From positions 32,001-96,000 of the IMG/VR virus record IMGVR_UViG_3300045771_000049: a stretch of DNA of 64,000 bases; one strand, 5' to 3'. Below are positions 10,814 to 58,219 of the stretch, piece after piece. Every line of letters starts with the position of its first letter. Position 1 is the first letter of the stretch. Source of the stretch: a virus (taxonomy: Duplodnaviria; Caudoviricetes). A program made the translations under genes and the position numbers. Below the pieces are notes generated by a model. The model was given only the letters and a program-made list of their open reading frames with translations. It had not been told where the DNA came from and did not search any database.

Positions 10814-10855
10814 TCTTATTTACACCAGATTGCCATGTGTTGTATAAATAGAAAT

Positions 10856-12106
10856 ATGAAAGCGTTCAAGTATAGACTGAAGCCGACTAGCGAGCAAGAG
10901 GGCGCATTGCGTCAAACTGGCGGTGCTTGTCGTTGGCTTTGGAATAAGATGCTCGAACAGAACAAAGCCAAATACGAACAAGAAAAGAAATTTGTCTTCA
11001 AGTATGATTTGGTCGGGTCTCTACCAAAACTGAAAGAGCTACATCCGTGGCTGAAGGAAATGCCTAGTCAATCGTTGCAGCAGAGATGTTGGGATTTGGA
11101 TACCGCTATGAAGCGGTGCTTCAAGTCGGGATTTGGATTCCCGAAGTTCAAATCGAAAGATGATGAAAACGACACGTTCCGTATCTCCCAGACCAATGGG
11201 CATATTAAAGTCACACGGCAGGCGATCAAGCTACCAAAATTAGGATGGATCAACTGGCGGCGTCATCGACCCATCGATGGCAGATTGATGTCTGTCACCA
11301 TCAAGCAGGAGGGCATTCGCTGGTATGCTATTTGTTTGTGCGATACAGGCGAGGTGCTGAACCAGATCAGCGTTTGTGAAGATGACATCGTTGGTATTGA
11401 TCTTGGATTATCCTGCTTTGCCATGACCAGCGATGGCGAACTATTTGAGAAGCCAGCCCAATGCTACCAACGACTCAAACATGAGCAACGGAAGTTGAGT
11501 CGGATTGACGAGTCGAACAAGAAACAAGGCATTACCAAGTCCAACAGAAGGCTCAAACAGAAACAAATATTAGCCAAAACGCATCGTATTATTAGCGATC
11601 AGCGATATGATTTTCATCACAAGACGAGTAGAGAGATAGCCAATTTCTATAAGTTTGCTGGCATGGAAGACCTACATATCAAAGGAATGATGAAGAACCA
11701 CTGCTTAGCAGGTTCAATAGCTAAGGCAGGCTGGCACTCATTCCGAATGATGATACGATACAAACTCAAAGACCAAGGCGGCGATCTGTTACTGGCGGAT
11801 CGGTTCTATCCAAGTACCAAGCTGTGTTCGAGTTGCGGTCATAAGCAGGCGATGACGCTTGCCGATCGCACGTTCACATGCGAATCCTGTGGGATGGAGA
11901 TGAACCGAGATGCCAATGCGGCGATCAATTTGAAGCTGTGGGCGATGAGAGAGATGAATAGGGCTGGGACAGTCCGAATCTACGCACGGGGAGATACCGC
12001 CATCGGGGACGAAATACGTAAGTCGTCTAGATGTGTATCATTGAAGCGTGAAAAGTTCCGAGACAATCAGGTCTTGGAAGCCGCGACCTCTTTAGGGTCG
12101 CGGTAG
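10856..12106 (+). CDS. tnpB: RNA-guided nuclease TnpB
   Basis: N-terminal KAFKYRL HTH; RuvC motifs GIDLG, EDL, RDANAA all intact; CxxC...CxxC zinc finger; TATAAATA at 10843-10850. Confidence 0.95.
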   Translation: MKAFKYRLKPTSEQEGALRQTGGACRWLWNKMLEQNKAKYEQEKKFVFKYDLVGSLPKLKELHPWLKEMPSQSLQQRCWDLDTAMKRCFKSGFGFPKFKSKDDENDTFRISQTNGHIKVTRQAIKLPKLGWINWRRHRPIDGRLMSVTIKQEGIRWYAICLCDTGEVLNQISVCEDDIVGIDLGLSCFAMTSDGELFEKPAQCYQRLKHEQRKLSRIDESNKKQGITKSNRRLKQKQILAKTHRIISDQRYDFHHKTSREIANFYKFAGMEDLHIKGMMKNHCLAGSIAKAGWHSFRMMIRYKLKDQGGDLLLADRFYPSTKLCSSCGHKQAMTLADRTFTCESCGMEMNRDANAAINLKLWAMREMNRAGTVRIYARGDTAIGDEIRKSSRCVSLKREKFRDNQVLEAATSLGSR

Positions 12107-12667
12107 TTCACATGAATATCGTTCCGATATGTTTCCGCTATCCAGTTTATCCTGGTCATAGTTCGCGAATTCAGATCGAATTTGACTTGGATTGAATACT
12201 ACGTATTGCGTAATGGGCGTTTTTCCATCCGGACTATCGGTTAACGTGTCCGGCAGGACGATCCCATCATAGCCATTGGCTTGGAGAAATTGACGGGCAG
12301 CAGGGTAATCGGTCGTGTCACCATTCATCCGGATTTGCCGTCCGCCGACCACGTAGTCGGGTTTTCTGAATGTGGTGAAACGATCGACCAGATCACGGAT
12401 TTCATTGTAGCTCTTGATCACCCAGGGATGCTTCAAGCGCAACCGCACCGGCATGACCGACGCGCCCTGTCCCCGTGCGGCAAAATCGGCAAACCCTGAA
12501 GCCGCCTCGGGATTATCCGTAAACCAGATGCCCAATGGACCTTCGCGCGATCCACTGCCCAGCTTACTGCCCATTTCAAAGGTGTGAAAATCTTTGTTAG
12601 TGCCGTGAAATGCTTTGATATTGAACCCAAGCTGTTCGGGACGGCCGATTAATTCCATGAGCCGCAT
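12092..12667 (-). CDS. ART-PolyVal-like ADP-ribosyltransferase domain protein
   Basis: FHGT, GIWFT, VMPVRL, GYDG, VVFNPSQIRS; last codons now supplied by the IS end. Confidence 0.8.
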   Translation of the reverse strand: MRLMELIGRPEQLGFNIKAFHGTNKDFHTFEMGSKLGSGSREGPLGIWFTDNPEAASGFADFAARGQGASVMPVRLRLKHPWVIKSYNEIRDLVDRFTTFRKPDYVVGGRQIRMNGDTTDYPAARQFLQANGYDGIVLPDTLTDSPDGKTPITQYVVFNPSQIRSEFANYDQDKLDSGNISERYSCELPRP

Positions 12668-15600
12668 CAGTATTTGCCTGTGCGCGTGGGAGTCGTGGCC
12701 GCCACTCTTGGCTGGTCTTGTGCCGCGCTCATATCCACAGAAACGTTTGGCGTGGTTTCGTCGGTCGCCTGCTTCACATCATTGACCTTAACGTTGATAT
12801 CGCGCTTCGGCACATCGTGCTGGGTTTGTGTCCCGGTCCCGTTTTTCCATTTGACCGCGAACCGGTAGAACGCGCTGGTCGGATGAGGCCGGTGCGGTCG
12901 GCGGGCCGGAGCCGAGGTGCCGCCACCAAACCCATCGGTCCGCAGATTGAGACCGGGTACGCCTGTGCCGATCTGCACGATCCCAGGCGGATGAACCACC
13001 GCGCCCCCAGTGGCAATCGGATCGCCAGAGACATCCTGGATCGTGCCGCCATTCAGATTAAGCGCAATGATCCGCAGATCGTCCGTGTTCTGATTATCGC
13101 CGATAGTATAGGAAAATACTATCGCATTGCCCGGTGCCGGATCGCCCATGTAGGTTGCGATGCCGCCATCATTCAGGCTCAAGGTTGGCGAACCCGTTAC
13201 CGTTACCTGTTCGCTCAGGTAAAGGGTCATCAAGGCAGTCGAACCCAGCGTCAGCGAACCCGAGCCATTGGTCACATCAGCGCCGGTAATCGCCACCGAG
13301 ATGATGATCGCTTGGTTGCAGCCGACGGTATCCTGTGCATTGCCGGTTTCCGACGTGTTGCTGGAGTCAATCCCCATGATAACGGCCATATCAACGGCCG
13401 AACAGGTTTCCGCAACGCCAGCGATATAAATCGCTGTTGCATTGGTCTGATCAAGCGCGAGACCGGTGTCTGTGCTATTCGCCACCGCCCATTCGGCGAT
13501 CTCACAGGCATCGGCAAGCTCGCAAAGCTCGGTCACATCATCAATCGAGGTGTCAAGCGCACTGGTGGCATCGGCAGACAGTCCGCCTTCGATAATAGCC
13601 GCAAGAGTGATCAGAGTGGCATCCGTGCGGTCCGCCATGCCCCCCGTTTCGACCACCGCCTGCGTGCTGATCAGAACACTATCGGTCAGGTCCGCCGCAA
13701 CCCCGAACTCGATGATCGACGCCAAAGTCATGTAAGTGGCATCAACCACTTCGATCGTCAAATTGGATTCCATCACCGGCACGAGTGTCACGATGGCATC
13801 GATACACATTTCGCGCGCGACCGCATTGACCTCTTCAATATCCGCATAGGTGTTCCAGATGCAATCGACTTGGTCGGTCGCACCCCCCAGTTCAGCAATG
13901 GTCGCCGCGAACCACACAAACACGGCGATCTGATCCGTTATCGTTTCGGCTTCATCCACCCCAATCCCGGAGAAGTTGCCGCCATTGCCACTATCACTGG
14001 CGCCTTCGAGTTCATCGACCTCGCCGACGAAAACATCATCCCTCGTATCCATCGAGTCTACACAGTTGCCAAACTCTGCGATCGTTGTAATGAAGGTCGC
14101 CGTGCTGTCGGCGATATCGCTGCATGAGCCGAGATCACCAGCGCTGCCGCCAAACTGACTGAAGGCGGTGTCAGGCAGGTCGGCACAGGACAAGAAGTCT
14201 CTGGTATCGCCATTGAAATTGCTGCTCAGCGTATCGAAACTGTCGAGCGCTGCGCATAGTTCTGCCACCGTACTGGCGAAGATCGCGACGACGCTGGCCT
14301 GATCGAGGGTCGCTTCGGTTTCCTCTGTATCTCCATCGAACAGGCTGGCAAACGTATTGACACTATCTTCTGGCCCGCAATTTTCAGGCGTCTCACCAAC
14401 GAACAGATTGGCCCGATTGTCGGTCAGATCGAGCGCGATCGGTATCTCGTCGATTTGGGCGACGAAGATCGCGGTTATGCCGCTCGTATCCCCAATGATG
14501 CCGATCTCGTCGGTTTCCCCGCTATAGGTGCTGGCGATGATAGCCGACAGGTCAACCAGAGCGCCGGTTTCATCGGTCTCGCCGCCCAGCAGGTTCGCGT
14601 AGGTATCGGTCAGATCAGACGCCGCGCCAATTTCAGCGATCACGGTAGCAAACACGGCCACCACGTTCGTCAGATCGGTGCTAGCGCCGGTTTCATCGGT
14701 CTCGCCGACCCATATACTATCGGCGGTGTCTACGGTCTCAGTGAGGCCCAGCGGCTCGCTTACGTCACCTGGGGCGATGTTCGCGGCGAACGGAGCATCA
14801 AGCAGGTTACAAAGCTCCACAACCGCACCCCAGTAGGCGCTTGGCCCGACATCAACGAGGTCCTCGGCGTCAGGAAATTCGGCGATGATCCCCTCGGTGA
14901 TGTCTACGTCTACCGGCTGGTCAAGTAGATCAGCGCTCTCATCGACCTCACCGACGAACACGCTGAGGGCTTCGTTCGTGAGGTCCAGCGCCGTTCCGGT
15001 GTCCGTCGTGTTGCCTAGGTAGACACTTTCGTAAGTGTCGAGGTGATCCCTGGCGAAACAGAAATTGAACGCGCTGGCGACAAAATCGGCCTGCGTGTAG
15101 CAGGTCTCATCCGCTTGGCCGGTTTCGTCGGTTTCACCCACGTAAACACTGGCGATGACATCAGCCCAATCACTCGCACCAGCGGTCTCGGATGCATCAC
15201 CGCCATATTGCGCCTCGAAGGTATCGAAACTATCGATCGCAGTTCCGGTTTCGAGGCAGTCAACAATATAATCAACGGTGGTATCACACTCATCGGCTGA
15301 AGACGCAGTTCCTTCGTTAATATTCGCGTTGCCAATATGACCCGCGTTAACGATTTCGGCCGCGTGCAGGGTGTCGCTGGTCGCTCCGACGAACAGATTG
15401 TCGGCGGTATCGGCCAGATCGAGCGGGGAGGCGAATTCCGCATTGGACCCGATGAACACGGCAGTGGCGCTGAGAGCATCCGTGCAGCCCTCGGCTTCGC
15501 TAATTGCCCCGCCAAACATGCTGTCATATTCTTCGGCATCATCCAGCAAGCCGTAGATTTCGCTGGCGTTACCGTTGAACAGATTGAACCCGTTATCGGA

Positions 15601-18600
15601 GGCATCCGTCAGGCCGCCATATTGGTCAAGCTCATCGATCTCGGCGGCAAATACCGCACTGACATTGGTCGCGTCTTGCAGCGTCGTGAGCAGATCATCC
15701 GTATCACCACCCAGCAGACAGCCATAGAGATCGGCGGCCTCGGCGAGACTGCCCGTTTCGCTCGTGTCGCCGCCAAAAATGCTATCGCTGGTGTCTACAA
15801 GCTCACTGAGCGCACCGGTTTCCTCGGTTGTGCAGGCGAACCATGCAGTGGCATCCACAATTTCTGCGGCCCAGCCGGTTTCGTCATAGGTCCCCACGAA
15901 GCTGCTTGGACCAGGGGCGCATGCATCACCCAACCCGTCCGCATCGGCGATATCACCGCCAAAGATGTTGGCGAAATTATCAGCATCGTCCTGACAGTTT
16001 CCAGCATCCTCGATATCACTGATGAAGATTGCCGTCGCGTCTGTGACGTCATTGGCGGCCAATGTTTCGGCCATATCGCCTACGTAGTCACTGTCCGCAA
16101 CATCACTGCTATCGCTGATAGCAAGGCTTAAATCGATCGCGCTATTGGCGATGTTCTCGCCCGCGCAGCCATCAATGCCAATACCGAATTCTGCAACAGC
16201 ACCGACGAATATACTGTCCAGCGTGTCGGTCAAATCGGCGCCATCCAGGAATTCAAACTCCAGGCCATACGTGCTATTGACATCGACTACAAAATCATCA
16301 ATGAACTGCGCATCTTCTTCGATATCACCGACGAAAATGTTATCAGAGACGTCAACCACATCTGCCAGATCGCTGAATTCACTCGTGTGACCGGTATAGA
16401 TACTGCCGAAATCATCTACGCTGTCGGTGAGTACGCCATCATCTTCGATATCCGTAACGAAAATTGCGGTCGCGTCGGCCGGATCATCAGCAAAGCCAAA
16501 TTCATCCACTTCACTGACAAAATCAGCATTGGCGCCGCTCTCATCCGAAATCGTATCAGCATCCGTCGAATCGCCGACGAACACGTTGGCATAAACATCC
16601 ACCCAATCTTCGCCAGCCAGGGTCTCCTCAGTCTGGGCAACGAAGATGGTAGTGCAGGTGATAACATCACTGGCCGTCAGTTGCTCTTGAACCGCGCCGA
16701 TGAAAATGCTTGCAAACGTATCAGTGAGTTCATCCAGTTCGCCCAGTTCACTGGCATCCCCATCGAACGTATCATCGATCGTGTCCATGGCGTCGCGACC
16801 ATCACCCGCCTCATCCACTTCGGCCGCGAAGATTGCCGAGCAAGCGGACTGGTCACCTGCATCCAGCGTTTCGTCGGTCTCGCCCACGAAAATGCTGCCG
16901 AAAGTATCGGCCGCATCGAGCGACGCACAGCTATCGAGAGTTGCGCCATTGTAAAGGCAGAACTGGGTATTAGTCTGATCAGCGGCGGCGCTTGTCTCAT
17001 CACAGAACGAAACAAAATCAGTGGTCTCGGTCAGACCATCACTGGGTGTCAGTCTCTCATCGGTTTCGCCGACGAAAATGCTGGCAGTGAGATCGGCATA
17101 GTCGGCCGCATCCAGCCCATCGCTATTATCGCCTCCAAAGACGTTAGTGGTATTGTCGGTAAGATCGGCACCGAAAGCGTCCTCCACCGCGTCTACGACG
17201 AAAATCGCAGTGCTGCTCGGGACATCCAGCACGGCGAGTGCATCGCTGGTGGCCCCATTGAGGATGCTGCCGAGACAATCCGGCAGATCGATAAGTTGGC
17301 CATCCTCCTGCACATCACCCAGGAACACACTGGCATAGGTGTCGGTGAAGTCATGAACATGGGCGAAATTGACCCCTGTCGCGACAAACAGCGCGGAGCA
17401 ATTGGCCTGTTCTGCCGCATCCAGGGTTTCATCGGTCTCACCGTCAAACACGCTGGGGCCGGTGTCAACACTGTCTGCGAGATCGGCGGCTTCATCGCAC
17501 TCGGCCACGCCGATGATATTGGCCGCAAGCGCATCGATCGCGGCACCAAGCTCATCGGTTTCGCCGACGAAGAGACTGGGCGCGGTGGCGACCGGCTGGT
17601 CATTGGCGCCCAAGGCTTCGTTGATGTTGACTAGGGTCTGGTCGGTTTCCGAGGCGAAGTCACCAATGCTGCCAGTTTCGGTGTATTGGCCAACCAGGGT
17701 GCTAGGCCCGAGGTCCGAAGCGTCGCCCGTCGATCCAGTTTCAGTGACAGCACCGTCGAAGCTATTTGAGTCATTATCGGTTTGATCGGCGGCATTCGCT
17801 GTCTCGACGCTGAGACTGACGAAGACCGCAGTGCTATCACAAACGTCGAGCAAGGCGCCGGGTTCGATGCAATCACCACCAAATGCGCCACCGAAGATAT
17901 CCGGCTGGTCTGCGACCCAACCCGCTTCATCGGTGTTGCCACCATAGATATCCATGTGACTATCAGCAATATCGGTGGCGAAACGCACGTTATGGATGGT
18001 GGTGTTGAAGATCGCGGTGCGATCAAGCGCATCCGTGATATGGGTTTTTTCGGTGTAATCGCCCAGGAAAATACTGCCCGAGCCATCAGTTGTATCGGTC
18101 GCGTTTGCCAGTTCATCGGCCTCGCCAATGTAGATGCTGGCAAAGTTATCGGCGTAATCGGCGAGAGTGCCGAGTTCGTTAACCGAGGCAATGAAGATGG
18201 CGGTTGCATCGCAGGCGTCCAGAACCAGAAGGTCATCGGCCAGCGCACCGACAAACAGGCTGTTCAGATCGTTTGGTGAATCAGCGGCATTGGCGATTTC
18301 GCTGCCATCGCCGACCCATTGACTGATTGTCGTGTCAGACGCGTCTGTGATCGAAACGATCTCGGCGATCAGCGCCGCGAACACGGCTGTGGTGTCTGTG
18401 CGATCGGTCGTTGTGGCAAGCACTTCGCCTTCGATGCCGGTGAGGATATCGTAAAGGGAATCGCTTTGGTCACCGGTCGCGCCCGCCTCAACCGTGGCCC
18501 CGCCAAAGACGTTGCCCTCGGTATCACTCAGGTCATCGAGTGCTCCGTTTTCGAGGCAGGTGCTGAGGAAACTGGCCGTAATCGTTTCAGCATCAGAGGC

Positions 18601-21600
18601 CGATCCCGTTTCGGTTTCCGCCCCCACGAGCGTATCGTCCAGTGAGGTGACGAAATCGACCGGGACACCTGTGTCTGTGGTGGCGCCGCCGAAGAGGTTC
18701 CCTGAATTATCGCAGGTATCACCGGACGCTCCGAAGTCACTGATGGAAACACTGAAGTCTGCATGATTCGCGACTGTGTCGAGAGCCGCCGCAGAGGCGT
18801 CATCAATGGCGCCATTAAACAGGTTGTTGGCGGTGTTGCTGGCATCCTGGGTCTGGCCTTGCTCATCGGTTTCGCCGACGAACACACTGAGATTGGTGGC
18901 TGTGATCTCGACGACCGCCCCAGTCTCATCGGTTTCACCAACAAAGCTATTGGCGTTTGTATACACAACTTCGGCGATTGCGCCGGTCTCATCGGTTTCA
19001 CCAACAAAGCTATTGGCGTTTGTATACACAACTTCGCCGATCGCGCCGGTCTCAGCGATAGCGCCGACGAATATGCTGGCATGGGTGTCTGTGGTATCGG
19101 CAAGGTCGTTCAGATCATTAATGAAATTTTCATTTTGATCGCCTGCTTCGATCCCTAGATCGGTTAATGCGCCGCTTTCCGCAACTGTGCCAACGAAACC
19201 ACTCTGTGCGGTAGTTGTCGCCTCGGTTGCGTTGCCAAACTCAAGACTTGTAACGACGAAACTGGCCACCGAGGTGGCGAGATCACTGGCTGCGCCATTC
19301 TCAGCAACAGCGGACCCGGTGATCGTGTTGCCGAGTGTGGTGTCAGCCGCAGCCAATAGCTCATTGGCGCTGCCACCAAACAGACTGGAGGCGGTGCCCG
19401 AGGTATCAGTCGCGAGGCCAGAATCGGCAATTGTAGCTACCGCAACGATCGTCGTGGAAATATATTCGAGGGCCGCACCAATTTCGTCAGTTTCTCCGAC
19501 AAAGAGGTTCAGATTCGTGTTCGAATAGTCACTCGCCGCGCCGGTCTCGCTTGCGGCACCGCCAAAGAGGCTGGGGGCGACAGTCGAGCCATCGTCCGCA
19601 GTGCCAGAATCGGCAATCGCGCCCCCATAGCTGCTCGGTGCCTCATTCGTCGCATCATTCGCCCCGCCCGCTTCGTTGACCAGGACCAAGGTGATATCGG
19701 TTTCGGCTTCGCTATCGGCGAGGGCCAAGGGTTCCCATACGGCGCCGACGAACAGATTGCCTGCTGTGGCCATTGTGTCGGTCGCTGAGAGGCTTTCCGG
19801 GGTTTGGCCGACGTAGAGGCTGGCTGCCACGTCCATGGCGTCAGTGGCCGTCCCAGCCTCGGCATAAGCACCGACGAAGATGCTGGCGAACAGACTGGGA
19901 CTATCAGCCGCATTCAGCGGCTCGGCGTCGCTCCCGACAAAGCTGCTAATCGTGGTAGCCAGCAATTCGGCCGCCGCGCCCGATTCGATTGTAGTCCCAA
20001 CATAGACACTGGGCGCTTCATTGACTGAATCGCTGACCAGATCGATCTCGTTGACCGTGGTATTGGCAATGAAGATAGCGATTTCGCTATCAGCCACATT
20101 GCCGGTTTCGGCCAGGGCGCCGCCAAAGGAACTATTGGTCGTGGCCGGGCTATCGAGAGCGGTGCCCGATTCGGCAACAGTGGTCGCGAAAATCGCCTGG
20201 ACTGCGGTGGCATCCGTGCCAAGCAGAGTTTCACCGTCCACAACTGTGGTAATGACATAGCCAGATTCCAGATCGCTTGCGGCCCCGGTTTCGGCATTGG
20301 CGCCCCCGAAACTGCTCGGCCCGGCATTGCTCAGATCGACGGCATTGGGGGTCTCTGCGATATTGGCAAAGGTCTGATAAGTCGCTGAGGGGACATCAAG
20401 TGCTGCGCCAATTTCGTTCGTCGCACCCACGAATACGTTTTGATTCAGGCTGACGCTTTCGACGAGATTACCAGTCTCGACTACTGCTCCCACAAATACA
20501 CTGGCAAACGTACTGGCTGCGTCATTTGCCGTCCCAGTATCGGCAATTGCCCCGTTGAAAAGACTTGGTGCTGTGGTCGCGGAGTCGGTCGCTGAACCGG
20601 TTTCGTTGGTGCTGCCGATCGCGGTATTCAGGGCACTCGGGTTATCGCTCGTCGCCCCGGATTCGGCGATCGCGCCAATGAAGACATTCTGATTGGTGGA
20701 AGGGATATCAGAGGCGCCGCCCATTTCGATGACTGTGGCAACCGCCAGTTCGGTTTCGGTCACGAGGTCCGATGCTAAGCCGGTCTCGCCGACGCTTACA
20801 TTCGTAATATAAACCGAGCTAGTAAGATCAGCCAGTGCGCCGGTTTCAGTCAAAGCTCCGACGAACGTATTGGCACTTGTGTTTACAGTATCGCTGGCCG
20901 ATCCGGTTTCCGGTGTGCTACGGTTCGCCGTGGTGAAGGCGATCAGACTATCGACCGCGTTGCCGTTTTCGGCGATCGCGCCTAGGAATATACTGGCATT
21001 TGTGGCTGGGATGTCGGTTGCCGAACCAGTCTCGCTGATTGCGCTGAGGGTAATATAGGTGGCAGAAGATTGATCAAATGCATTGCCGTTTTCGGGCGTA
21101 TTGCCGACCCATATATCTTGGGTGACACTGACCGTATCAGAGGCGATGCCTGTTTCGGCGACATTCCCTGAGTACAGACTGGCAAAGGCATTGGTCGCAT
21201 CATTGCTTGAGCCGGTTTCGGTGATGGCGCCAACGAAAATACTGCCGAGTGTGTCAGGATTGTCAAGCGCCGCGCCCAGTTCATCGGTTTCGCCCACAAA
21301 CGTGCTGATCGTCGTGGCCGGACTATCGCTCGCGTTGCCTGCTTCATTGATGATCGCGGCTGCGAGATAGATCGATCCCACGGCGTCAGAAGCGGCCCCG
21401 ATCTCGCTGTCGTCGCCACCATAGCTGCTGCCAAACGGAACCGTAGTATCAGCCGCATTGCCAAATTCAGTGATAAGCCCAAAGGTAATATCGGTCTCAT
21501 CGGTTGCATCAGTTAGCGCGCCAGTTTCGCCCGTGTTGCCCACATAGGTGCTGGCGATGATGGCTGTCGCCTCCGCAAGCGTGCCGGTTTCGGCCACCGC

Positions 21601-24480
21601 CCCGCCGAGAAGATTGGCGAGCGAATTGACCGCATCTGTGGCCAGACCCAATTCACTTATGTTACCAACGAAATTACTATTCGAGGCATTGACTGCATCA
21701 CTCGCATTGCCAGTTTCGGCGATGTTTCCAACGAATGTGCTGGGGCCGGTGTTCGCAATATCGGCGGCGCTTCCACTTTCGCTGATCGAGACATTGGTGA
21801 TCTTGCTGGCATTGGTCGTATCGGCTATGGCGCCCGCATCTGCGATCGCGCCAATAAATATGCTAGGCGCGGCAAGAACCATATCGCTGGCCGCACCAGC
21901 CTCTGCAATGCTGACATTTGTCGCATCGGTATTGGTGACTTGGTCGGATACGGCTCCGCTCTCATTGACCGCACCCACAAAGGTATTGGCGATAACGGTT
22001 ACATTGTCTTGAAGATTGCGAACCTCACTGGCATTCACGACCCCGTCTGGGGATGTCTGGGTGATCTGGTTCATCTGCAACGTGACAGCGGTCTGCGAGA
22101 GGAATCGCGCATAGGCCGCCGCCCCGGTCATCAACGCGATCGAGGTCGCGCCAAGCACAATGCCTTGGAACGAGGCGCCCGTGCCGATGGTCGAACTAGA
22201 AGCGATCACCCAGAAGATGTTTTTGGCTTGCAGACCGCCGCTGAGCGTAATGATCACCGAATTGGCTACGGTGAAGGTTCCGGCGACTTGGAGAACATAG
22301 ACATCGTTCGGGCCGCCCGTCAGGGTGACATTTGTGCTGACCAGAAGCCCGCTGGTCCATTTATAGATGCCAGGGGTAAGCGTTGCGCCGCCGATTTGGC
22401 CTGCGCCGAATTCACTGAAAGCAGGTGGGGCGCGGCCCACACCGTCATTGTAGGCGGTGAGCATATCGCCAACCGCGATGCTTAGATACGACGCGTTGAT
22501 AACCGCGCAGGGTGCTGGACCAGCCGCATCAACAACATAAATGTCACCGGTTACTTCACTGCAAGAAAGCAACATGGCGGCGCCCGTGATCGGACTAGTG
22601 CCCACATCGCCAACAACCACCGAAGGAAAGACATCGGTAACGCCAGACTCAGACAGGATGACAAAGTTGCCCGCTGTTCTGAGATTGATGGGTGATAGAT
22701 TTAGTCCGGTCGTGTCGGCGGCCGAACCTGATTCGGTGATCGCCGCACTGGTGATCTGCGTGGCTGCCACAACATCCGAGGCAGCGCCGGTCTCATTGAT
22801 TATGCCATTGAAGGTGCTGATCGTGGTCGAAGTGACCGCAGCCGCGTTGCCGGTCTCAACCACATTGCCAAAATACGTGCTCGCGATGATCGCCGCAACA
22901 TCTACACCTGCACCGCTTTCGTTGATGTTTCCACTATAAGCACTTGCGGCAATGGCCGGGATATCGACAGCCAACCCGCCTTCGCTCGTGCTGCCAACAT
23001 AGCTACTGGGTGCGGTAGCGCAACTATCATTTGCGGCGCCAGTTTCACTGACCAGAACGAACGTGAGATCGGTATCCAAGACCGTGTCGGTCGCATTACC
23101 GGTTTCGCTGATATTGCCGAAATACGTACTCGCAGCCACGCCAAACAGATCGACGGCATTACCAATTTCGATAACATTGCCGAAATAGACGCTTGCAACC
23201 ACACTCGTCAGATCAGTGGCCGCTCCAGTTGCCGTGATGGCAGCCGATGCGACATAGGTTTCGCTGGTCGCATCGACGATCGTCGTGTTGATCGTAACAA
23301 ACTCGACAACCGGTGATGCTTGGGTTGTACTGGCTTGGCCGAAGATCAGGGCAGCGTTGCCATTGACATCGGCTGTGAATGGAACGGTCACCCATGTTCC
23401 AGCGTTGGGAACGGTCCAACTGCTCGTGATGGTCGTTAGAAGGACGGTGTTGACCGTCAGGGTGAACACATAGTTGAGATTCGGACTATTATCGCCGGAC
23501 AGCAGGAAATTAACCGTGTACGGAGCAAATGGCACCAGCCCAGTCTGCGTATAGCTGGCTTGACCGACTGGGGTGGTTTCGTTGATTTGAAACGCACAGG
23601 CGCCGGACAATGAATCGATCAGTAGCCAACAGTTCCCTGCAAACGTCCAGCCCAGCGCGCTGGTTAAATTATATTGAGACGCACTTTCCATCGTTTGCGT
23701 TGTGATCGAACTACGATAGGTTCCAACGAACGCCGAACTTGAAAAATTCTGACTGTAGACGACGAAGGGCGTTTCGGCGACGCTGCCAGTGAAGATGCTA
23801 TTACTTTCATTGGGCGTGTCGGTCGCGTTGCCGGTTTCAGCCACGGTTGCGGCGAGCGGAGCCGCCAATGCCTCGATCAAAGAGGCACCGACAATATTGC
23901 TCGGCACCGTGTATTCGGCAAGTATTTCAGTATTGGTGGCGCCACCAAACAGTGTGACGGCCTCGATCGGGATGTTCGTGTTGGTAGTGTTGGTCATCAA
24001 CACGGTTGCGGTCGGGACGCTAACCGCGAGCGTGAGGGCAGCGTGATAGCCCATACCAAGGGCGATGCCGAGACTCGCCCCACCGGTCGTGTAAAGGGCG
24101 ACGGTATCCGCTGTGATACCAGCAAAAGTCGTAGTAGTGGTGCCGATTGGAAGGGTGGTCTTGGTCCCGGCGAGGCCGACCGCGAGGCAGACGGCAATGT
24201 CACACGCACTGCTGCTGGTGATCGACACCGAATTCGAGCCGGTTGGCGGATTGATCAGATACCACGCCCAGAGCGTCTGGTAGTTCGTCCCGGCTACCGA
24301 AACGATATTGGTCATTGCCGTGCCACCATAAGTGCAGGTCGGCACGTAACTGTATTTGCTTTGCGTGTAATAATAGACGATTAGTAGCGAACAGCCAGTT
24401 GCATTATAGCTTTGCGTATAGCTTAACGGGGTGCTGCCTGCCGAGTTGCCGGTTGAATAGGATACAATGGAAGATGACAC
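12667..24480 (-). CDS. giant (3937 aa) acidic repeat virion fibre/adhesin with DUF3494 ice-binding-like domain
   Basis: well over 100 ~20-22 aa ETG.A.D repeats; DUF3494-like domain ~22060-22690; Ig-like adhesin domain ~12970-13300; CTAAATA at 24515-24521. Confidence 0.8.
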   Translation of the reverse strand: MSSSIVSYSTGNSAGSTPLSYTQSYNATGCSLLIVYYYTQSKYSYVPTCTYGGTAMTNIVSVAGTNYQTLWAWYLINPPTGSNSVSITSSSACDIAVCLAVGLAGTKTTLPIGTTTTTFAGITADTVALYTTGGASLGIALGMGYHAALTLAVSVPTATVLMTNTTNTNIPIEAVTLFGGATNTEILAEYTVPSNIVGASLIEALAAPLAATVAETGNATDTPNESNSIFTGSVAETPFVVYSQNFSSSAFVGTYRSSITTQTMESASQYNLTSALGWTFAGNCWLLIDSLSGACAFQINETTPVGQASYTQTGLVPFAPYTVNFLLSGDNSPNLNYVFTLTVNTVLLTTITSSWTVPNAGTWVTVPFTADVNGNAALIFGQASTTQASPVVEFVTINTTIVDATSETYVASAAITATGAATDLTSVVASVYFGNVIEIGNAVDLFGVAASTYFGNISETGNATDTVLDTDLTFVLVSETGAANDSCATAPSSYVGSTSEGGLAVDIPAIAASAYSGNINESGAGVDVAAIIASTYFGNVVETGNAAAVTSTTISTFNGIINETGAASDVVAATQITSAAITESGSAADTTGLNLSPINLRTAGNFVILSESGVTDVFPSVVVGDVGTSPITGAAMLLSCSEVTGDIYVVDAAGPAPCAVINASYLSIAVGDMLTAYNDGVGRAPPAFSEFGAGQIGGATLTPGIYKWTSGLLVSTNVTLTGGPNDVYVLQVAGTFTVANSVIITLSGGLQAKNIFWVIASSSTIGTGASFQGIVLGATSIALMTGAAAYARFLSQTAVTLQMNQITQTSPDGVVNASEVRNLQDNVTVIANTFVGAVNESGAVSDQVTNTDATNVSIAEAGAASDMVLAAPSIFIGAIADAGAIADTTNASKITNVSISESGSAADIANTGPSTFVGNIAETGNASDAVNASNSNFVGNISELGLATDAVNSLANLLGGAVAETGTLAEATAIIASTYVGNTGETGALTDATDETDITFGLITEFGNAADTTVPFGSSYGGDDSEIGAASDAVGSIYLAAAIINEAGNASDSPATTISTFVGETDELGAALDNPDTLGSIFVGAITETGSSNDATNAFASLYSGNVAETGIASDTVSVTQDIWVGNTPENGNAFDQSSATYITLSAISETGSATDIPATNASIFLGAIAENGNAVDSLIAFTTANRSTPETGSASDTVNTSANTFVGALTETGALADLTSSVYITNVSVGETGLASDLVTETELAVATVIEMGGASDIPSTNQNVFIGAIAESGATSDNPSALNTAIGSTNETGSATDSATTAPSLFNGAIADTGTANDAASTFASVFVGAVVETGNLVESVSLNQNVFVGATNEIGAALDVPSATYQTFANIAETPNAVDLSNAGPSSFGGANAETGAASDLESGYVITTVVDGETLLGTDATAVQAIFATTVAESGTALDSPATTNSSFGGALAETGNVADSEIAIFIANTTVNEIDLVSDSVNEAPSVYVGTTIESGAAAELLATTISSFVGSDAEPLNAADSPSLFASIFVGAYAEAGTATDAMDVAASLYVGQTPESLSATDTMATAGNLFVGAVWEPLALADSEAETDITLVLVNEAGGANDATNEAPSSYGGAIADSGTADDGSTVAPSLFGGAASETGAASDYSNTNLNLFVGETDEIGAALEYISTTIVAVATIADSGLATDTSGTASSLFGGSANELLAAADTTLGNTITGSAVAENGAASDLATSVASFVVTSLEFGNATEATTTAQSGFVGTVAESGALTDLGIEAGDQNENFINDLNDLADTTDTHASIFVGAIAETGAIGEVVYTNANSFVGETDETGAIAEVVYTNANSFVGETDETGAVVEITATNLSVFVGETDEQGQTQDASNTANNLFNGAIDDASAAALDTVANHADFSVSISDFGASGDTCDNSGNLFGGATTDTGVPVDFVTSLDDTLVGAETETGSASDAETITASFLSTCLENGALDDLSDTEGNVFGGATVEAGATGDQSDSLYDILTGIEGEVLATTTDRTDTTAVFAALIAEIVSITDASDTTISQWVGDGSEIANAADSPNDLNSLFVGALADDLLVLDACDATAIFIASVNELGTLADYADNFASIYIGEADELANATDTTDGSGSIFLGDYTEKTHITDALDRTAIFNTTIHNVRFATDIADSHMDIYGGNTDEAGWVADQPDIFGGAFGGDCIEPGALLDVCDSTAVFVSLSVETANAADQTDNDSNSFDGAVTETGSTGDASDLGPSTLVGQYTETGSIGDFASETDQTLVNINEALGANDQPVATAPSLFVGETDELGAAIDALAANIIGVAECDEAADLADSVDTGPSVFDGETDETLDAAEQANCSALFVATGVNFAHVHDFTDTYASVFLGDVQEDGQLIDLPDCLGSILNGATSDALAVLDVPSSTAIFVVDAVEDAFGADLTDNTTNVFGGDNSDGLDAADYADLTASIFVGETDERLTPSDGLTETTDFVSFCDETSAAADQTNTQFCLYNGATLDSCASLDAADTFGSIFVGETDETLDAGDQSACSAIFAAEVDEAGDGRDAMDTIDDTFDGDASELGELDELTDTFASIFIGAVQEQLTASDVITCTTIFVAQTEETLAGEDWVDVYANVFVGDSTDADTISDESGANADFVSEVDEFGFADDPADATAIFVTDIEDDGVLTDSVDDFGSIYTGHTSEFSDLADVVDVSDNIFVGDIEEDAQFIDDFVVDVNSTYGLEFEFLDGADLTDTLDSIFVGAVAEFGIGIDGCAGENIANSAIDLSLAISDSSDVADSDYVGDMAETLAANDVTDATAIFISDIEDAGNCQDDADNFANIFGGDIADADGLGDACAPGPSSFVGTYDETGWAAEIVDATAWFACTTEETGALSELVDTSDSIFGGDTSETGSLAEAADLYGCLLGGDTDDLLTTLQDATNVSAVFAAEIDELDQYGGLTDASDNGFNLFNGNASEIYGLLDDAEEYDSMFGGAISEAEGCTDALSATAVFIGSNAEFASPLDLADTADNLFVGATSDTLHAAEIVNAGHIGNANINEGTASSADECDTTVDYIVDCLETGTAIDSFDTFEAQYGGDASETAGASDWADVIASVYVGETDETGQADETCYTQADFVASAFNFCFARDHLDTYESVYLGNTTDTGTALDLTNEALSVFVGEVDESADLLDQPVDVDITEGIIAEFPDAEDLVDVGPSAYWGAVVELCNLLDAPFAANIAPGDVSEPLGLTETVDTADSIWVGETDETGASTDLTNVVAVFATVIAEIGAASDLTDTYANLLGGETDETGALVDLSAIIASTYSGETDEIGIIGDTSGITAIFVAQIDEIPIALDLTDNRANLFVGETPENCGPEDSVNTFASLFDGDTEETEATLDQASVVAIFASTVAELCAALDSFDTLSSNFNGDTRDFLSCADLPDTAFSQFGGSAGDLGSCSDIADSTATFITTIAEFGNCVDSMDTRDDVFVGEVDELEGASDSGNGGNFSGIGVDEAETITDQIAVFVWFAATIAELGGATDQVDCIWNTYADIEEVNAVAREMCIDAIVTLVPVMESNLTIEVVDATYMTLASIIEFGVAADLTDSVLISTQAVVETGGMADRTDATLITLAAIIEGGLSADATSALDTSIDDVTELCELADACEIAEWAVANSTDTGLALDQTNATAIYIAGVAETCSAVDMAVIMGIDSSNTSETGNAQDTVGCNQAIIISVAITGADVTNGSGSLTLGSTALMTLYLSEQVTVTGSPTLSLNDGGIATYMGDPAPGNAIVFSYTIGDNQNTDDLRIIALNLNGGTIQDVSGDPIATGGAVVHPPGIVQIGTGVPGLNLRTDGFGGGTSAPARRPHRPHPTSAFYRFAVKWKNGTGTQTQHDVPKRDINVKVNDVKQATDETTPNVSVDMSAAQDQPRVAATTPTRTGKY
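18923..19054. repeat. near-perfect 63-bp tandem duplication inside the giant gene
   Basis: GTCTCATCGGTTTCACCAACAAAGCTATTGGCGTTTGTATACACAACTTCG at 18923 and 18986. Confidence 0.9.
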
Positions 24481-31747: not shown

Positions 31748-31772
31748 CGGTATTATGTAGCAAACACCACCA
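31748..31772 (+). mobile_element. solo IS1595-like terminal inverted repeat
   Basis: CGGTATTATGTAGCAAACACCACCA, 24/25 identical to the IR at 58140-58166. Confidence 0.75.
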
Positions 31773-31794
31773 TCCCTCCGAGCTAAATACTATA

Positions 31795-55498: not shown

Positions 55499-55688
55499 CC
55501 AACGACTCTCGCACCTGCTGGGCTGGTGGCGGCCGGAGCCATTGAGGTCGATCGGCGCGGCATCGCGGCTGTGATCGAGCGCCAACGCCCGGTCTGGATC
55601 GCCGAATATGAGGCCGCCCGTGAACGCGGCCAGGAGCGCCCCTGATGGCCCGACCGGATGACCGACCCTGTGATAGACAAACTGCCGC

Positions 55689-55720
55689 TTGACGTGCTTA
55701 ATAGAATCAGGATACATATA
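55689..55720 (+). promoter_or_regulatory. sigma70-like promoter for the Val leader/tRNA cluster
   Basis: TTGACG-N18-TACATA, 7 nt before ATG 55726. Confidence 0.5.
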
Positions 55721-55725
55721 CCGCC

Positions 55726-55824
55726 ATGTTCACAACCTCACCCATGATTGCGCTCCGCAAGACGGCCAAAGCCGATGGGATTGTCGTGCGCGTCGTCCGA
55801 ATGCGACATCGTCATGTCGTCTAG
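55726..55824 (+). CDS. putative Val-rich leader peptide
   Basis: MFTTSPMIALRKTAKADGIVVRVVRMRHRHVV*; 54 nt upstream of tRNA-Val. Confidence 0.55.
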   Translation: MFTTSPMIALRKTAKADGIVVRVVRMRHRHVV

Positions 55825-55878
55825 GGATTGATGGCTGGTAGCGAATGCTGCCCGGCCCACCGATTCTAGATTGGTTAT

Positions 55879-55953
55879 GGGCGCGTAGTTCAGGGGTAGA
55901 ACGCCTGTTTTACAAGCAGGATGCCGGTGGTTCGAAACCATCCGCGCCTACCA
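55879..55953 (+). tRNA. tRNA-Val(TAC)
   Basis: canonical cloverleaf; TT-TAC-AA loop; GTTCGAAAC; CCA end. Confidence 0.92.
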
Positions 55954-56030
55954 ATCCCCGAAATGTGGTTTCTTGTGAATAACAGGGCAGTGGTGAAGTT
56001 GTCGGCGACCGCACCTGACCAACTTTAAAT

Positions 56031-56102
56031 GGCGGGACTTCTCGGGAAGGGACGCGTTTCATAAGCGCATCTAGACCGGTTCGATGCCGGTACCCGCCAC
56101 CA
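56031..56102 (+). tRNA. tRNA with CAT anticodon (Met or Ile2), atypical D arm
   Basis: GGCGGG/CCCGCC acceptor; TT-CAT-AA loop; ACCGG-TTCGATG-CCGGT T arm; CCA end. Confidence 0.7.
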
Positions 56103-56166
56103 TCCCTCAGAACAACCGGCTTGTTGGCGCGATAGATAGCGGCTCAACAAGCAAGGTTAGTCGTCC

Positions 56167-56466
56167 ATGAGTGATGTTCCCAACTATACCCATTATCTTC
56201 GTCTTGCCTTCACCGGATACTGGACCGACAGTTGTCCCTCGGCCGAGAAGTTCTACGTTTTGGGCAAAGCCCTCAACGTTACTCTGACCGATGTCTACGA
56301 ACTAGAGTCTGAAGTGCTTGGCATGATGACAGAATGGTACGGCGACCGCATCACCGAGGTCACCTATATCGGCCATATCAATGTCAGGTTGTCCGACACT
56401 GATGTGATCGACGAGGGTTGGTATGTGTTTGACCCAGAATCCATCCAGCCGCTGCCGGTGGGCTGA
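56167..56466 (+). CDS. hypothetical protein
   Basis: ORF between the tRNAs and rpmG. Confidence 0.5.
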   Translation: MSDVPNYTHYLRLAFTGYWTDSCPSAEKFYVLGKALNVTLTDVYELESEVLGMMTEWYGDRITEVTYIGHINVRLSDTDVIDEGWYVFDPESIQPLPVG

Positions 56467-56468
56467 GC

Positions 56469-56637
56469 GTGGCGAAGAAAAACCACAGTTCAGATTAAGC
56501 TGATCTCGACCGCTGATACCGGATACTTCTACGTCACTACCAAGAACTCTCGCAGCAAAGCGAACAAATTGGTGCTGCGCAAGTATGACCCGGTGGTCCG
56601 TAGACATGTCGATTTCAAGGAAACCAAAATCAAATGA
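56469..56637 (+). pseudogene. rpmG: 50S ribosomal protein bL33 with one extra A after the GTG start
   Basis: [52 protein letters not shown]; GTG 56469 is out of frame by one base in an A5 run. Confidence 0.85.
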
Positions 56638-56654
56638 TGAACGTGAACTAAAGC

Positions 56655-56740
56655 TGGTGGGGGCTGAGGGGGTCGAACCCTCACTTCCTAACGGAAACCT
56701 GATCTTAAATCAAGCGCGTATGCCTTTTCGCCAAACCCCC
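56655..56740 (-). tRNA. tRNA-Leu(TAA)
   Basis: cloverleaf with long variable arm; TT-TAA-GA loop; CCA end. Confidence 0.92.
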
Positions 56741-56760
56741 TTTGAGGCTTCCAGATTGGA

Positions 56761-56848
56761 TGGTGTGGGCGAGAGGAATTGAACCTCCACGATCCTCTCG
56801 GACCAACAGGGTTTGAGCCTGTCGCGGCTGCCGTTACGCCACGCCCAC
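56761..56848 (-). tRNA. tRNA-Leu(CAA)
   Basis: cloverleaf with long variable arm; CT-CAA-AC loop; CCA end. Confidence 0.92.
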
Positions 56849-56850
56849 AC

Positions 56851-56948
56851 AAAGAAAAACCCCCTTACCGATCTGGCAAGGGGGTTCGCCCGTCGCGTGG
56901 GATCGGTGATGGGGGTCAGGTTAAGCGTAAGGTGCGATGCGGGTGCAT
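56851..56948 (-). promoter_or_regulatory. putative ribosome-mediated attenuator (Leu-UUA leader peptide + terminator/antiterminator)
   Basis: leader MHPHRTLRLT* at 56948-56916 with two TTA codons; terminator AACCCCCTTGCC-AGATC-GGTAAGGGGGTT-TTTCTTT; competing ACCCCC-ATC-ACCGATC segment. Confidence 0.7.
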
Positions 56949-56953
56949 AATTC

Positions 56954-58166
56954 CGCTATTATGTAGCAAACGCCACCAAATCATCCGCTGGAGTAGCCAG
57001 ATGCCCAAGTCGCTCGCGAGCAATATTAGCATAAACAGGGTTCAATTCGATCAGCGTCGCTCGTCTGTTCAATTCACCAGCAACCAAGCCGGTCGTTCCG
57101 GCGCCCCCAAACGGATCAAGCACCAACTCTCCTTCGGGACATCCAGCAAGAATGCAGCGCCGGGCTAATTCTGGTGGCATCGTGGCAAAATGTGCGCCGT
57201 GAAATGGCTTTGGGGCAATAGTCCAGACATTCCGACCGTTGCGTGTTACGTTGTTCAGAAATTCTCGGGTATATCCACCTAAAACCTGCTTTGCCTCGGC
57301 AGCAAGCTTCATCACTTCGGACGTGTTGTGCCCAAATCCGTCTTGCGTGATTTGAGACTTACCCACATCGGTAATCCCGCAGGCGCGTAGTGCAGCAAGA
57401 TGGGCTGATGTTAAACCGCCGCGCTCAGCCAATTCCAACGCCCGTCGCATTTGCGGCCGATCAATCACGGCAGATGGTTCAGCCAACGAATCGGCATCGT
57501 AATAATAGTGCGGACGTTTGGATAATAAATAGACCTTTTCGTGGGCACTGGTAGGCCGATCACGTACGGCTTCCGGCATTTGGCTGGTTTTATGCCATAT
57601 GATTTCGCTTCGTAAAAACCAGCCATCGGATTGAAGCCCAATCGCTACACGTGACGGAATCATCATCAGGTCTTTAGGCTTATAGCCGCTCGGTACGGTT
57701 TTTTCGCGTCGCTTACCTGTGACGTTGTCGATATACGCCTGTCCAGTCGAGTGAAATGCATCACTATGCGATGTGCCCTGCTTGCCGTGATGGGTCGCCG
57801 CATAACTGTCGCCCAGATTGAGCCAGACCGTGCCATCGTCACGCAACACGCGCCGCACCTCGCGAAACACGTCCACCAGTCTTGCCACGTAGGCGTCAGG
57901 TGTCTGTTCCATGCCGATCTGACCGTCAACTTGGTAGTCGCGCAGGCCAAAATACGGCGGCGAGGTCACACAGGTCTGAAAATGGAACTTAGGTAGTGTT
58001 TGCAATATTCCCATGCAGTCTCCGATATGGAGATGGATACTTTGAGAGTTCTGAAATTGTATAAGGTCATCTAATGGCATTCAACTACTATAAAGGCTCT
58101 CTATTCTGTAAGACTATTTATTAATGACTGAATGGGCGGTTTGGTGGCGTTTGCTACATAATACCG
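56954..58166. mobile_element. non-autonomous IS1595-like cassette carrying a DNA methyltransferase
   Basis: 27-bp IRs (26/27 identical) CG(C/G)TATTATGTAGCAAACGCCACCAAA; 8-bp direct repeat CATAATTC at 56946-56953 and 58167-58174; no transposase. Confidence 0.85.
56959..58080 (-). CDS. beta-class DNA N4-cytosine/N6-adenine methyltransferase
   Basis: TSPPY; HFATMP; LDPFGGAGTT; stop codon lies inside the IR. Confidence 0.92.
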   Translation of the reverse strand: MPLDDLIQFQNSQSIHLHIGDCMGILQTLPKFHFQTCVTSPPYFGLRDYQVDGQIGMEQTPDAYVARLVDVFREVRRVLRDDGTVWLNLGDSYAATHHGKQGTSHSDAFHSTGQAYIDNVTGKRREKTVPSGYKPKDLMMIPSRVAIGLQSDGWFLRSEIIWHKTSQMPEAVRDRPTSAHEKVYLLSKRPHYYYDADSLAEPSAVIDRPQMRRALELAERGGLTSAHLAALRACGITDVGKSQITQDGFGHNTSEVMKLAAEAKQVLGGYTREFLNNVTRNGRNVWTIAPKPFHGAHFATMPPELARRCILAGCPEGELVLDPFGGAGTTGLVAGELNRRATLIELNPVYANIARERLGHLATPADDLVAFAT

Positions 58167-58187
58167 CATAATTCTATATATCATCCT

Positions 58188-58219
58188 CAATCAGGTCTTG
58201 GAAGCCGCGACCTCTTCAC
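58188..58219 (+). mobile_element. deleted remnant of the IS605 right end
   Basis: CAATCAGGTCTTGGAAGCCGCGACCTCTT identical to 12064-12092, then joined directly to CAC. Confidence 0.7.

Follow-up and report, generated by a model that had tools for sequence, protein, structure and literature searches.

The phage described here very probably gates its blocks of tRNA genes by means of short leader ORFs whose codons match the tRNAs that follow. This conclusion applies to the genome as a whole, and is independent of the unit upstream of two tRNA-Leu genes (the Leu unit) with which much of this analysis is concerned. The Leu unit itself probably acted as a leader-peptide attenuator in the ancestral form of the phage, which was free of the cassette now found at the leader start codon. 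An attenuator is the best reading of the Leu unit because the same layout is found before three other tRNA clusters, whose leaders are matched to their own tRNAs. Considered alone, the Leu unit is a weak case, and it is the weakest of the four units in the record.

The attenuator layout had been recognised in an earlier reading made from the letters of the DNA (the sequence-only reading). The three codon-matched siblings strengthen that view, while the weak Leu codon evidence, the poorest promoter of the four and a competing fold that pairs the 3′ arm of the terminator count against it. The class of mechanism is a textbook one, but the class of target, tRNA genes, is not. In agreement with the sequence-only reading, which knew of no such case for phage tRNA genes, a full-text literature search turned up no account of tRNA genes, whether phage or bacterial, being controlled by a leader peptide.

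The Leu unit and its genomic setting

The window analysed is a stretch of 64,000 nucleotides (bases 32001-96000) from an IMG/VR virus record of 152 kb, which CheckV rates as 36% complete. The GC content of the record is 54.7%, i.e. it is moderately GC-rich. Its T4-type major capsid protein shares 76% identity with the counterpart in Sinorhizobium phage Phosso (469 kb) and 63% with the one in Agrobacterium phage Atu_ph07 (490 kb), from which we conclude that the record is part of a giant phage genome of the Rak2/Atu_ph07 kind. The phage is uncultured, and its other copies are known from metagenome contigs; peat samples containing it include JGI 3300029911, 3300029939 and 3300029945. A peat alphaproteobacterium is the probable host, given that the contigs originate from bog metagenomes and that the terminal repeat of the cassette occurs in a Rhodopila MAG labelled SPRUCE. 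The record contains four tRNA clusters, each located downstream of a promoter-like site and a mini-ORF, and approximately 56 kb of extra phage sequence past both ends of the record contains no further tRNA genes.

Some other features of the phage may be noted in passing. A polysaccharide-type gene block lies ~10-30 kb beyond the 3′ end of the record (contigs L208/L211), and comprises glycosyltransferases, WecG, Bac_transf, a GNVR chain-length-like protein, a cellulase-family protein, an ATP-grasp protein and a fatty-acid hydroxylase. Within the window, a single ORF of 3937 aa occupies 12667-24480 on the minus strand. A transposase-like ORF is found at 10835-12106 on the plus strand (PHROG 506, labelled transposase, E 1e-108), and probably represents a second mobile element that is unrelated to the methylase cassette.

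The features of the Leu locus and of the adjacent Val/Met unit are listed in Table 1. On the minus strand, the order is two tail-fibre-like genes (605 and 833 aa), a 131-aa gene, the methylase, the ten-codon ORF, the hairpin, tRNA-Leu(CAA) and tRNA-Leu(TAA). The Leu unit is only ~100 nt in size. The ten-codon ORF is present as first read, with TTA for both of its Leu codons. A pattern scan identified the terminator as a hairpin of 13 pairs (56887-56857) with a T-run after it; folded by itself, the hairpin has −21.4 kcal/mol. Together with ARAGORN and Rfam, which both identified the tRNA genes, this confirms the earlier description of a terminator ending just before tRNA-Leu(CAA), with tRNA-Leu(TAA) following. 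The gap between the end of the T-run and tRNA-Leu(CAA) is 2 nt, which leaves no space for a promoter, and the tRNA-Leu genes must therefore be reached through the hairpin.

Table 1 Positions of features in the window, in order of coordinate.
Feature	Position	Strand	Details
Val/Met sibling unit	55689..55824	+	TTGACG, 18 nt, TACATA, 7 nt, ATG, 32-codon ORF
tRNA-Val(TAC) and tRNA-Met(CAT)	55879..56102	+	Downstream of Val/Met leader
tRNA-Leu(TAA)	56655..56740	-	CCA encoded; ARAGORN and Rfam
tRNA-Leu(CAA)	56761..56848	-	CCA encoded; ARAGORN and Rfam
Intrinsic terminator	56851..56887	-	12-13 bp stem, 5-nt loop, T-run; pattern scan
G-rich segment	56889..56896	-	Pairs with terminator 5′ arm in alternative fold
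Post-stop segment resembling terminator 5′ arm	56901..56916	-	Pairs with terminator loop and 3′ arm
Leader mini-ORF	56916..56948	-	ATG 56948, TGA 56916; 10 codons plus TGA; peptide MHPHRTLRLT
Two TTA (Leu) codons	56922..56930	-	Codons 7 (56930-56928) and 9 (56924-56922)
Target-site duplication, downstream copy	56946..56953	-	8 bp, GAATTATG; includes leader ATG; direct reading
Cassette, IS1595-type, non-autonomous	56954..58166	.	1213 bp; 27-nt terminal inverted repeats; DNA methylase passenger
N6/N4 DNA methyltransferase	56959..58080	-	373 aa, start tentative; Pfam PF01555, E 1e-43; PHROG 67
Target-site duplication, upstream copy	58167..58174	-	8 bp, GAATTATG; direct reading
Promoter-like site of intact Leu locus	58175..58203	-	TTCCAA 58203-58198, 17-nt spacer, TATATA 58180-58175; direct reading

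In contigs that are free of the cassette (L008-L014), the TATATA box, 5 nt and the leader ATG are contiguous. The description of the start as leaderless in appearance was correct. The −35 element of the Leu unit (TTCCAA) is a poorer match than the TTGACR-N18 promoters of the siblings, and is the weakest of the four. A promoter scan tool made no call at the TTCCAA/TATATA site.

The presence of the hairpin can be explained without a leader, because it is the first terminator past the tail-fibre genes. It might therefore act only as an intrinsic terminator for the tail-fibre operon, with a ten-codon ORF that has arisen by chance and tRNA-Leu genes that are transcribed by leaky read-through. Both the location of the hairpin, downstream of the 605-, 833- and 131-aa minus-strand genes, and the weak promoter match of the Leu unit speak for this explanation. 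It does not account, however, for a strong terminator that abuts genes with no promoter, nor for an ATG that lies 5 nt past a −10-like box, an arrangement that is similar in the siblings. We consider it rather unlikely.

The region beyond the tRNA-Leu genes was also inspected. A minus-strand ORF at 56302-56607 was rejected as an antisense shadow of a plus-strand ORF of 99 aa, the translation being judged by eye. The whole 99-aa ORF is common to all seven of the other contigs checked, and a homologue search with it matched only itself. A ribosomal protein L33 domain is found at 56167-56637 on the plus strand (Pfam PF00471, E 6.5e-15). It is in frame with the 99-aa ORF, with a single TGA between them, and lacks its own start codon (ATG, GTG or TTG). 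The L33 domain could be expressed by read-through, re-initiation or a non-standard start.

Tests of codon matching in the leaders of four tRNA clusters

All three sibling units have a sigma70-like promoter 6-7 nt before the ATG, and two of the three have a hairpin with a T-run. In the Val/Met unit, six Val and two internal Met are found among the 32 codons of the leader ORF, and no canonical terminator was found after it. The Trp/Phe/Tyr/Cys unit consists of TTGACA, an 18-nt spacer, TTTAAT, 6 nt, and the ATG of a 30-codon ORF containing FFCCWRY, followed by a hairpin and six T. The Asp/Glu/Glu/Thr unit (hereafter Asp/Glu/Thr) has TTGACG, 18 nt, TATACA, 7 nt, and the ATG of an 18-codon ORF, followed again by a hairpin and six T. 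This ORF has seven Thr, two Asp, one Glu and four Arg. When the Leu unit is included, a mini-ORF starts 5-7 nt past a −10-like box before all four tRNA clusters, the leaders being at genome positions 18149, 87726, 88948 and 127959. The pattern TTGACR-N17/18-(−10) is found at four sites in the 152 kb, three of which are the sibling tRNA leaders.

Enrichment of the leaders in the amino acids of their own tRNAs was calculated for ORFs that were defined by the promoter, without selection. The four promoter-defined leaders give binomial p values of 0.016, 0.0042, 0.17 and 3e-4, with a Fisher's combined p of 5e-6, and the off-diagonal pairings of leaders with tRNAs all have p >0.15. The value of 0.17 belongs to the Leu leader, which has two Leu in nine codons, and is non-significant. 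In its amino-acid content the Leu leader cannot be told apart from chance, and this is a further point in favour of a hairpin that merely terminates the tail-fibre operon. Windows with at least six of seven codons in Trp/Phe/Tyr/Cys are found at seven places in the six frames of the 152 kb, and one of these is the Trp/Phe/Tyr/Cys leader.

At the level of codons, TTA is used 5.45 times per 1000 codons, and makes up ~6.5% of Leu codons. The sequence-only reading had expected TTA to be rare in GC-rich DNA; the rarity is borne out, but the GC-richness is only moderate. TTA is read by tRNA-Leu(UAA) alone. Among 815 ORFs of up to 12 codons, one has two TTA codons, and two TTA are found in 63 of 276,426 three-codon windows. 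The occurrence of two TTA in nine codons is left unexplained if the ORF upstream of a tail-fibre terminator is a product of chance.

It is worth adding that Arg and His codons are found among the regulatory codons in all four leaders (WRY, VVRVVRMRHRH, HPHRTLRL and TTTRRDERD). In addition, the Asp/Glu/Thr cluster contains a tRNA-like gene of aberrant form, whose anticodon loop carries TCG (Arg) (L006:689-766, equivalent to genome 128388-128465). Its variable region is long, its D arm is poor, and ARAGORN misses it. Its sole Rfam match is to tRNA-Sec, at 26.9 bits and below threshold, and the leader upstream of it is the one with four Arg codons.

One common enrichment metric was used to compare this record with 107 tRNA clusters from six relatives: Phosso, Atu_ph07 and four giant phages from IMG/VR whose capsid identity is 72-80%. 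The scores of the three sibling units (5.35, 4.04 and 4.40) lie above those of all 107 clusters of the relatives (maximum 3.98), whose own pairings do no better than shuffled ones. With a score of 0.96, about the null median, the Leu unit is equalled or exceeded by 58 of the 107. No codon-matched leaders were seen in the 107 clusters of the six related giant phages. Phosso and Atu_ph07 are like this record in having many small tRNA clusters and sigma70-like promoters of the TTGACA type, but differ in that the promoter is ~40 nt before the tRNA, with neither a leader ORF nor a terminator. The occurrence in relatives of promoters of the same type that lack leaders suggests that the leader gates are an addition made within the lineage of this phage. 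Equally, relatives whose tRNAs are driven by directly upstream promoters with no leaders lend some weight to the interpretation of the Leu hairpin as a tail-fibre terminator.

Conserved TTA codons and covarying stems in related phages, which the sequence-only reading had put forward as a check, did not materialise: the six related giant phages have no such leaders, and the seven other contigs are identical over 401 nt at the Leu locus, offering zero variation for a covariation test. Protein-based scans with the 131-, 251- and 550-aa neighbours gave one distant contig with no tRNAs, or nothing, and an exact hairpin search for relatives of the locus gave no matches; none of these searches brought up a diverged relative that has the Leu locus. 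The promoter-plus-ATG pattern matched one unrelated gene start in viral contigs, and in metagenomes just further copies of the phage's own Asp/Glu/Thr leader. BLAST searches against cultured phages, using the stretch from the methylase to tRNA-Leu and the Trp/Phe/Tyr/Cys cluster, gave methylase and single-tRNA matches only.

RNA folding and the proposed mechanism

The spacer between the leader stop codon and the terminator is 32 nt long, and pairs with both terminator arms above chance. Pairing of the post-stop segment with the loop and 3′ arm has −23.8 kcal/mol, which is equalled by 9 of 3000 dinucleotide shuffles, and pairing of the spacer with the terminator 5′ arm has −9.2 kcal/mol, equalled by 37 of 3000 shuffles. 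The pairing of the post-stop bases with the loop and 3′ strand had been noticed in the sequence-only reading, and is well supported, since in addition to the shuffling result the alternative pairing is the minimum-free-energy fold of 56849-56960. The nested alternative fold and the terminator state are nearly isoenergetic (−32.6 and −31.0 kcal/mol respectively). A tail-fibre terminator would leave the above-chance pairing of the spacer with both arms unexplained.

The folding was modelled with a ribosome footprint of 30 nt. With the A site at Leu7 (the first TTA) or earlier, the terminator has a probability of 0-0.1; with the A site anywhere from Arg8 through the stop, the value is 0.99. In the model, the 'on' state is reached from the first UUA alone, and a stall at the second UUA leads to the terminator. 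In the comparison of folds with and without a ribosome footprint, as originally suggested, the terminator probability does switch, but the alternative fold still has a stem that reaches the U-run. In classical antiterminators, the 5′ arm of the terminator is held and the 3′ arm stays unpaired. The alternative fold modelled here occupies the 3′ arm, and its basal stem of seven G/C pairs abuts the U-run. Because the 3′ arm is paired and the basal stem ends at the U-run, the alternative fold may itself terminate transcription.

Alternatively, the bistable RNA may act independently of translation. It could be a double or extended terminator by which the tRNAs are shielded from late transcription, or an element for processing or stability of the tRNA precursor. 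In favour of this, both folds put a G/C stem at the U-run. As in the Leu unit, a look-alike of the terminator 5′ arm lies upstream in the Asp/Glu/Thr unit, and a motif repeated in this way could serve folding rather than sensing. On the other hand, an RNA that folds independently of translation provides no reason for the codon matching in the sibling ORFs, nor for a stop codon that abuts the competing segment, and we regard this explanation as quite improbable. The presence of the look-alike in two units does suggest deliberate design of some kind. Thermodynamic modelling of the Asp/Glu/Thr unit showed no clean switch.

Returning to the attenuator, we hypothesise that in the cassette-free phage the region from the TATATA box to tRNA-Leu(TAA) would be a single transcription unit gated by the leader peptide. 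Transcription would start at or next to the ATG, to give a leaderless message, and a ribosome would translate the ten-codon ORF. A ribosome that had passed both UUA codons and reached the stop would cover the post-stop segment with its footprint, allowing the 12-bp terminator to form, and the terminated transcript would end 2-8 nt before tRNA-Leu(CAA). When charged tRNA-Leu(UAA) is scarce, the ribosome would wait at the first UUA, which would leave the post-stop segment free. The free segment would then form the nested fold on both terminator arms, and more polymerases would enter the tRNA-Leu genes. Anticodon-nuclease defence as the trigger is speculation.

A wider hypothesis, to which we give about an even chance of being right, is that the phage runs independent feedback gates, in which transcription of a tRNA block requires slow decoding of a leaderless test ORF that is composed of the codons or amino acids served by that block. 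The phage would thereby measure the host tRNA pool codon by codon and top up what is missing, for example after tRNA loss in infection or defence. The Leu gate would sense the rare codon UUA alone, and the forms with and without the cassette in the peat population would amount to a natural promoter-deletion experiment. If it is true that a leader-peptide gate acts on tRNA genes, decoding speed and tRNA supply would be coupled directly in a loop, and such a loop could explain how giant phages can afford dozens of tRNA genes. The design would be a compact, portable sensor of single-codon decoding, and the Leu unit, with 100 nt and one rare codon, is small enough to make an easy test case.

Ribosome-mediated leader-peptide attenuators of transcription are known from the amino-acid operons of Enterobacteria, namely leuL, trpL, hisL, pheL, thrL and ilvL. 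The Leu unit is like the leuL/trpL type in having a short ORF with putative regulatory codons, a stop beside a putatively competing segment, a terminator, and then the genes thought of as regulated. It differs in that these genes are tRNA genes, the message looks leaderless, there are two candidate regulatory codons only, and the competing fold takes the 3′ as well as the 5′ arm of the terminator. Because the regulated genes are tRNAs, the sensor would read the supply of its own product. The Trp/Phe/Tyr/Cys sibling matches the classical attenuator form, in that the best partner of its 5′ arm is at the end of the ORF, and when it was modelled the terminator probability was lowered by stalls at Cys9 and Trp10 alone.

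In E. coli, the pheM leader provides attenuation of the pheST operon, which encodes phenylalanyl-tRNA synthetase, with charged tRNA being sensed via the speed of the ribosome. Like the phage units this is attenuation of a gene of the translation apparatus, but pheM controls a synthetase and not tRNA genes. In E. coli pheV (tRNA-Phe), the promoter is immediately upstream and there is no leader ORF. T-box riboswitches are similar to the Leu unit in coupling tRNA status to terminator read-through, but they bind uncharged tRNA directly and translation is not needed. No match to a T-box or other cis-regulatory Rfam family was found in 55500-57500 at E values up to 1.

A methylase cassette at the leader ATG

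In this record the leader is split from its upstream DNA by a cassette inserted at the ATG, as the sequence-only reading had proposed, and this is confirmed by the terminal repeats, the target-site duplication and seven empty sites. The inverted repeats (56954-56980 and 58140-58166) are complementary at 26 of 27 positions. The site is empty in the seven other metagenome contigs that carry the 99-aa gene, in which the 131-aa gene is 1221 bp closer. Removal of 1221 bp (1213 + 8) from the window yields a 401-nt stretch that is identical to all seven. The insertion is present in one of the eight assemblies (the record and the seven contigs). Judged by these sequences, the cassette was inserted recently and duplicated 8 bp of its target.

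The 27-nt repeat is also present in six bacterial MAGs, five of them labelled Proteobacteria/Alphaproteobacteria, and in three other viral contigs. In an alphaproteobacterial MAG, a pair of the repeats encloses a DDE transposase of the IS1595 family; the related element of 3.3 kb at L203:1302-4593 has the transposase. IS1595 elements produce 8-bp target duplications. Given the shared repeats around an IS1595 transposase, together with the 8-bp duplication, the copy in the window is a transposase-less IS1595-type derivative. Its terminal inverted repeats and duplication are like those of IS1595 elements, but it differs from them in carrying a methylase only. No DDE transposase is encoded in the cassette, in which the methylase is the sole ORF with a family match, and the cassette must therefore move in trans.

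These observations qualify the earlier claim that the attenuator is directly controlling the tRNA-Leu genes. The layout of the intact locus is in keeping with direct control, but this may fail in the present record because the cassette lies between the promoter-like site and the leader. Here, the leader would be fed by transcription out of the cassette, and not by its own promoter. It is conceivable that in this record a former attenuator has been disabled or rewired, having lost its promoter to the cassette, so that tRNA-Leu output is tied to methylase transcription and the leader is translated by re-initiation only. The position of the cassette between the promoter-like site and the ATG, the methylase stop codon located 10 nt before the leader ATG, and the fact that the one assembly of eight with the insertion is this record are all consistent with such a loss. 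However, it is compatible with an attenuator in the ancestral form and is no true alternative, and the inverted repeat has a possible outward promoter (TG-n-TACATA, 11 nt before the ATG). As an explanation in its own right we consider it very unlikely. At a guess, the leader could be translated by re-initiation after the methylase stop. The filled and empty cassette sites permit comparison inside natural populations.

The IS1595-type element family is common to alphaproteobacterial MAGs and phages, and is also represented at L200:5636-7294. A third, solitary copy of the 27-nt repeat is located at 31748-31774 on the minus strand. We rejected a role of the repeat as a phage promoter motif, since it has only three copies in 152 kb and is a transposon end. 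Beyond the 3′ end of the record, the phage has an IS1595-family DDE transposase gene of its own near another N6/N4 methylase (L214:6243-6947 and L215:4826-5527). No copy of the 27-nt repeat was found in the L214/L215 loci, with up to 7 mismatches allowed. The gene content beside this transposase differs between L214 and L215, which points to further insertion polymorphisms.
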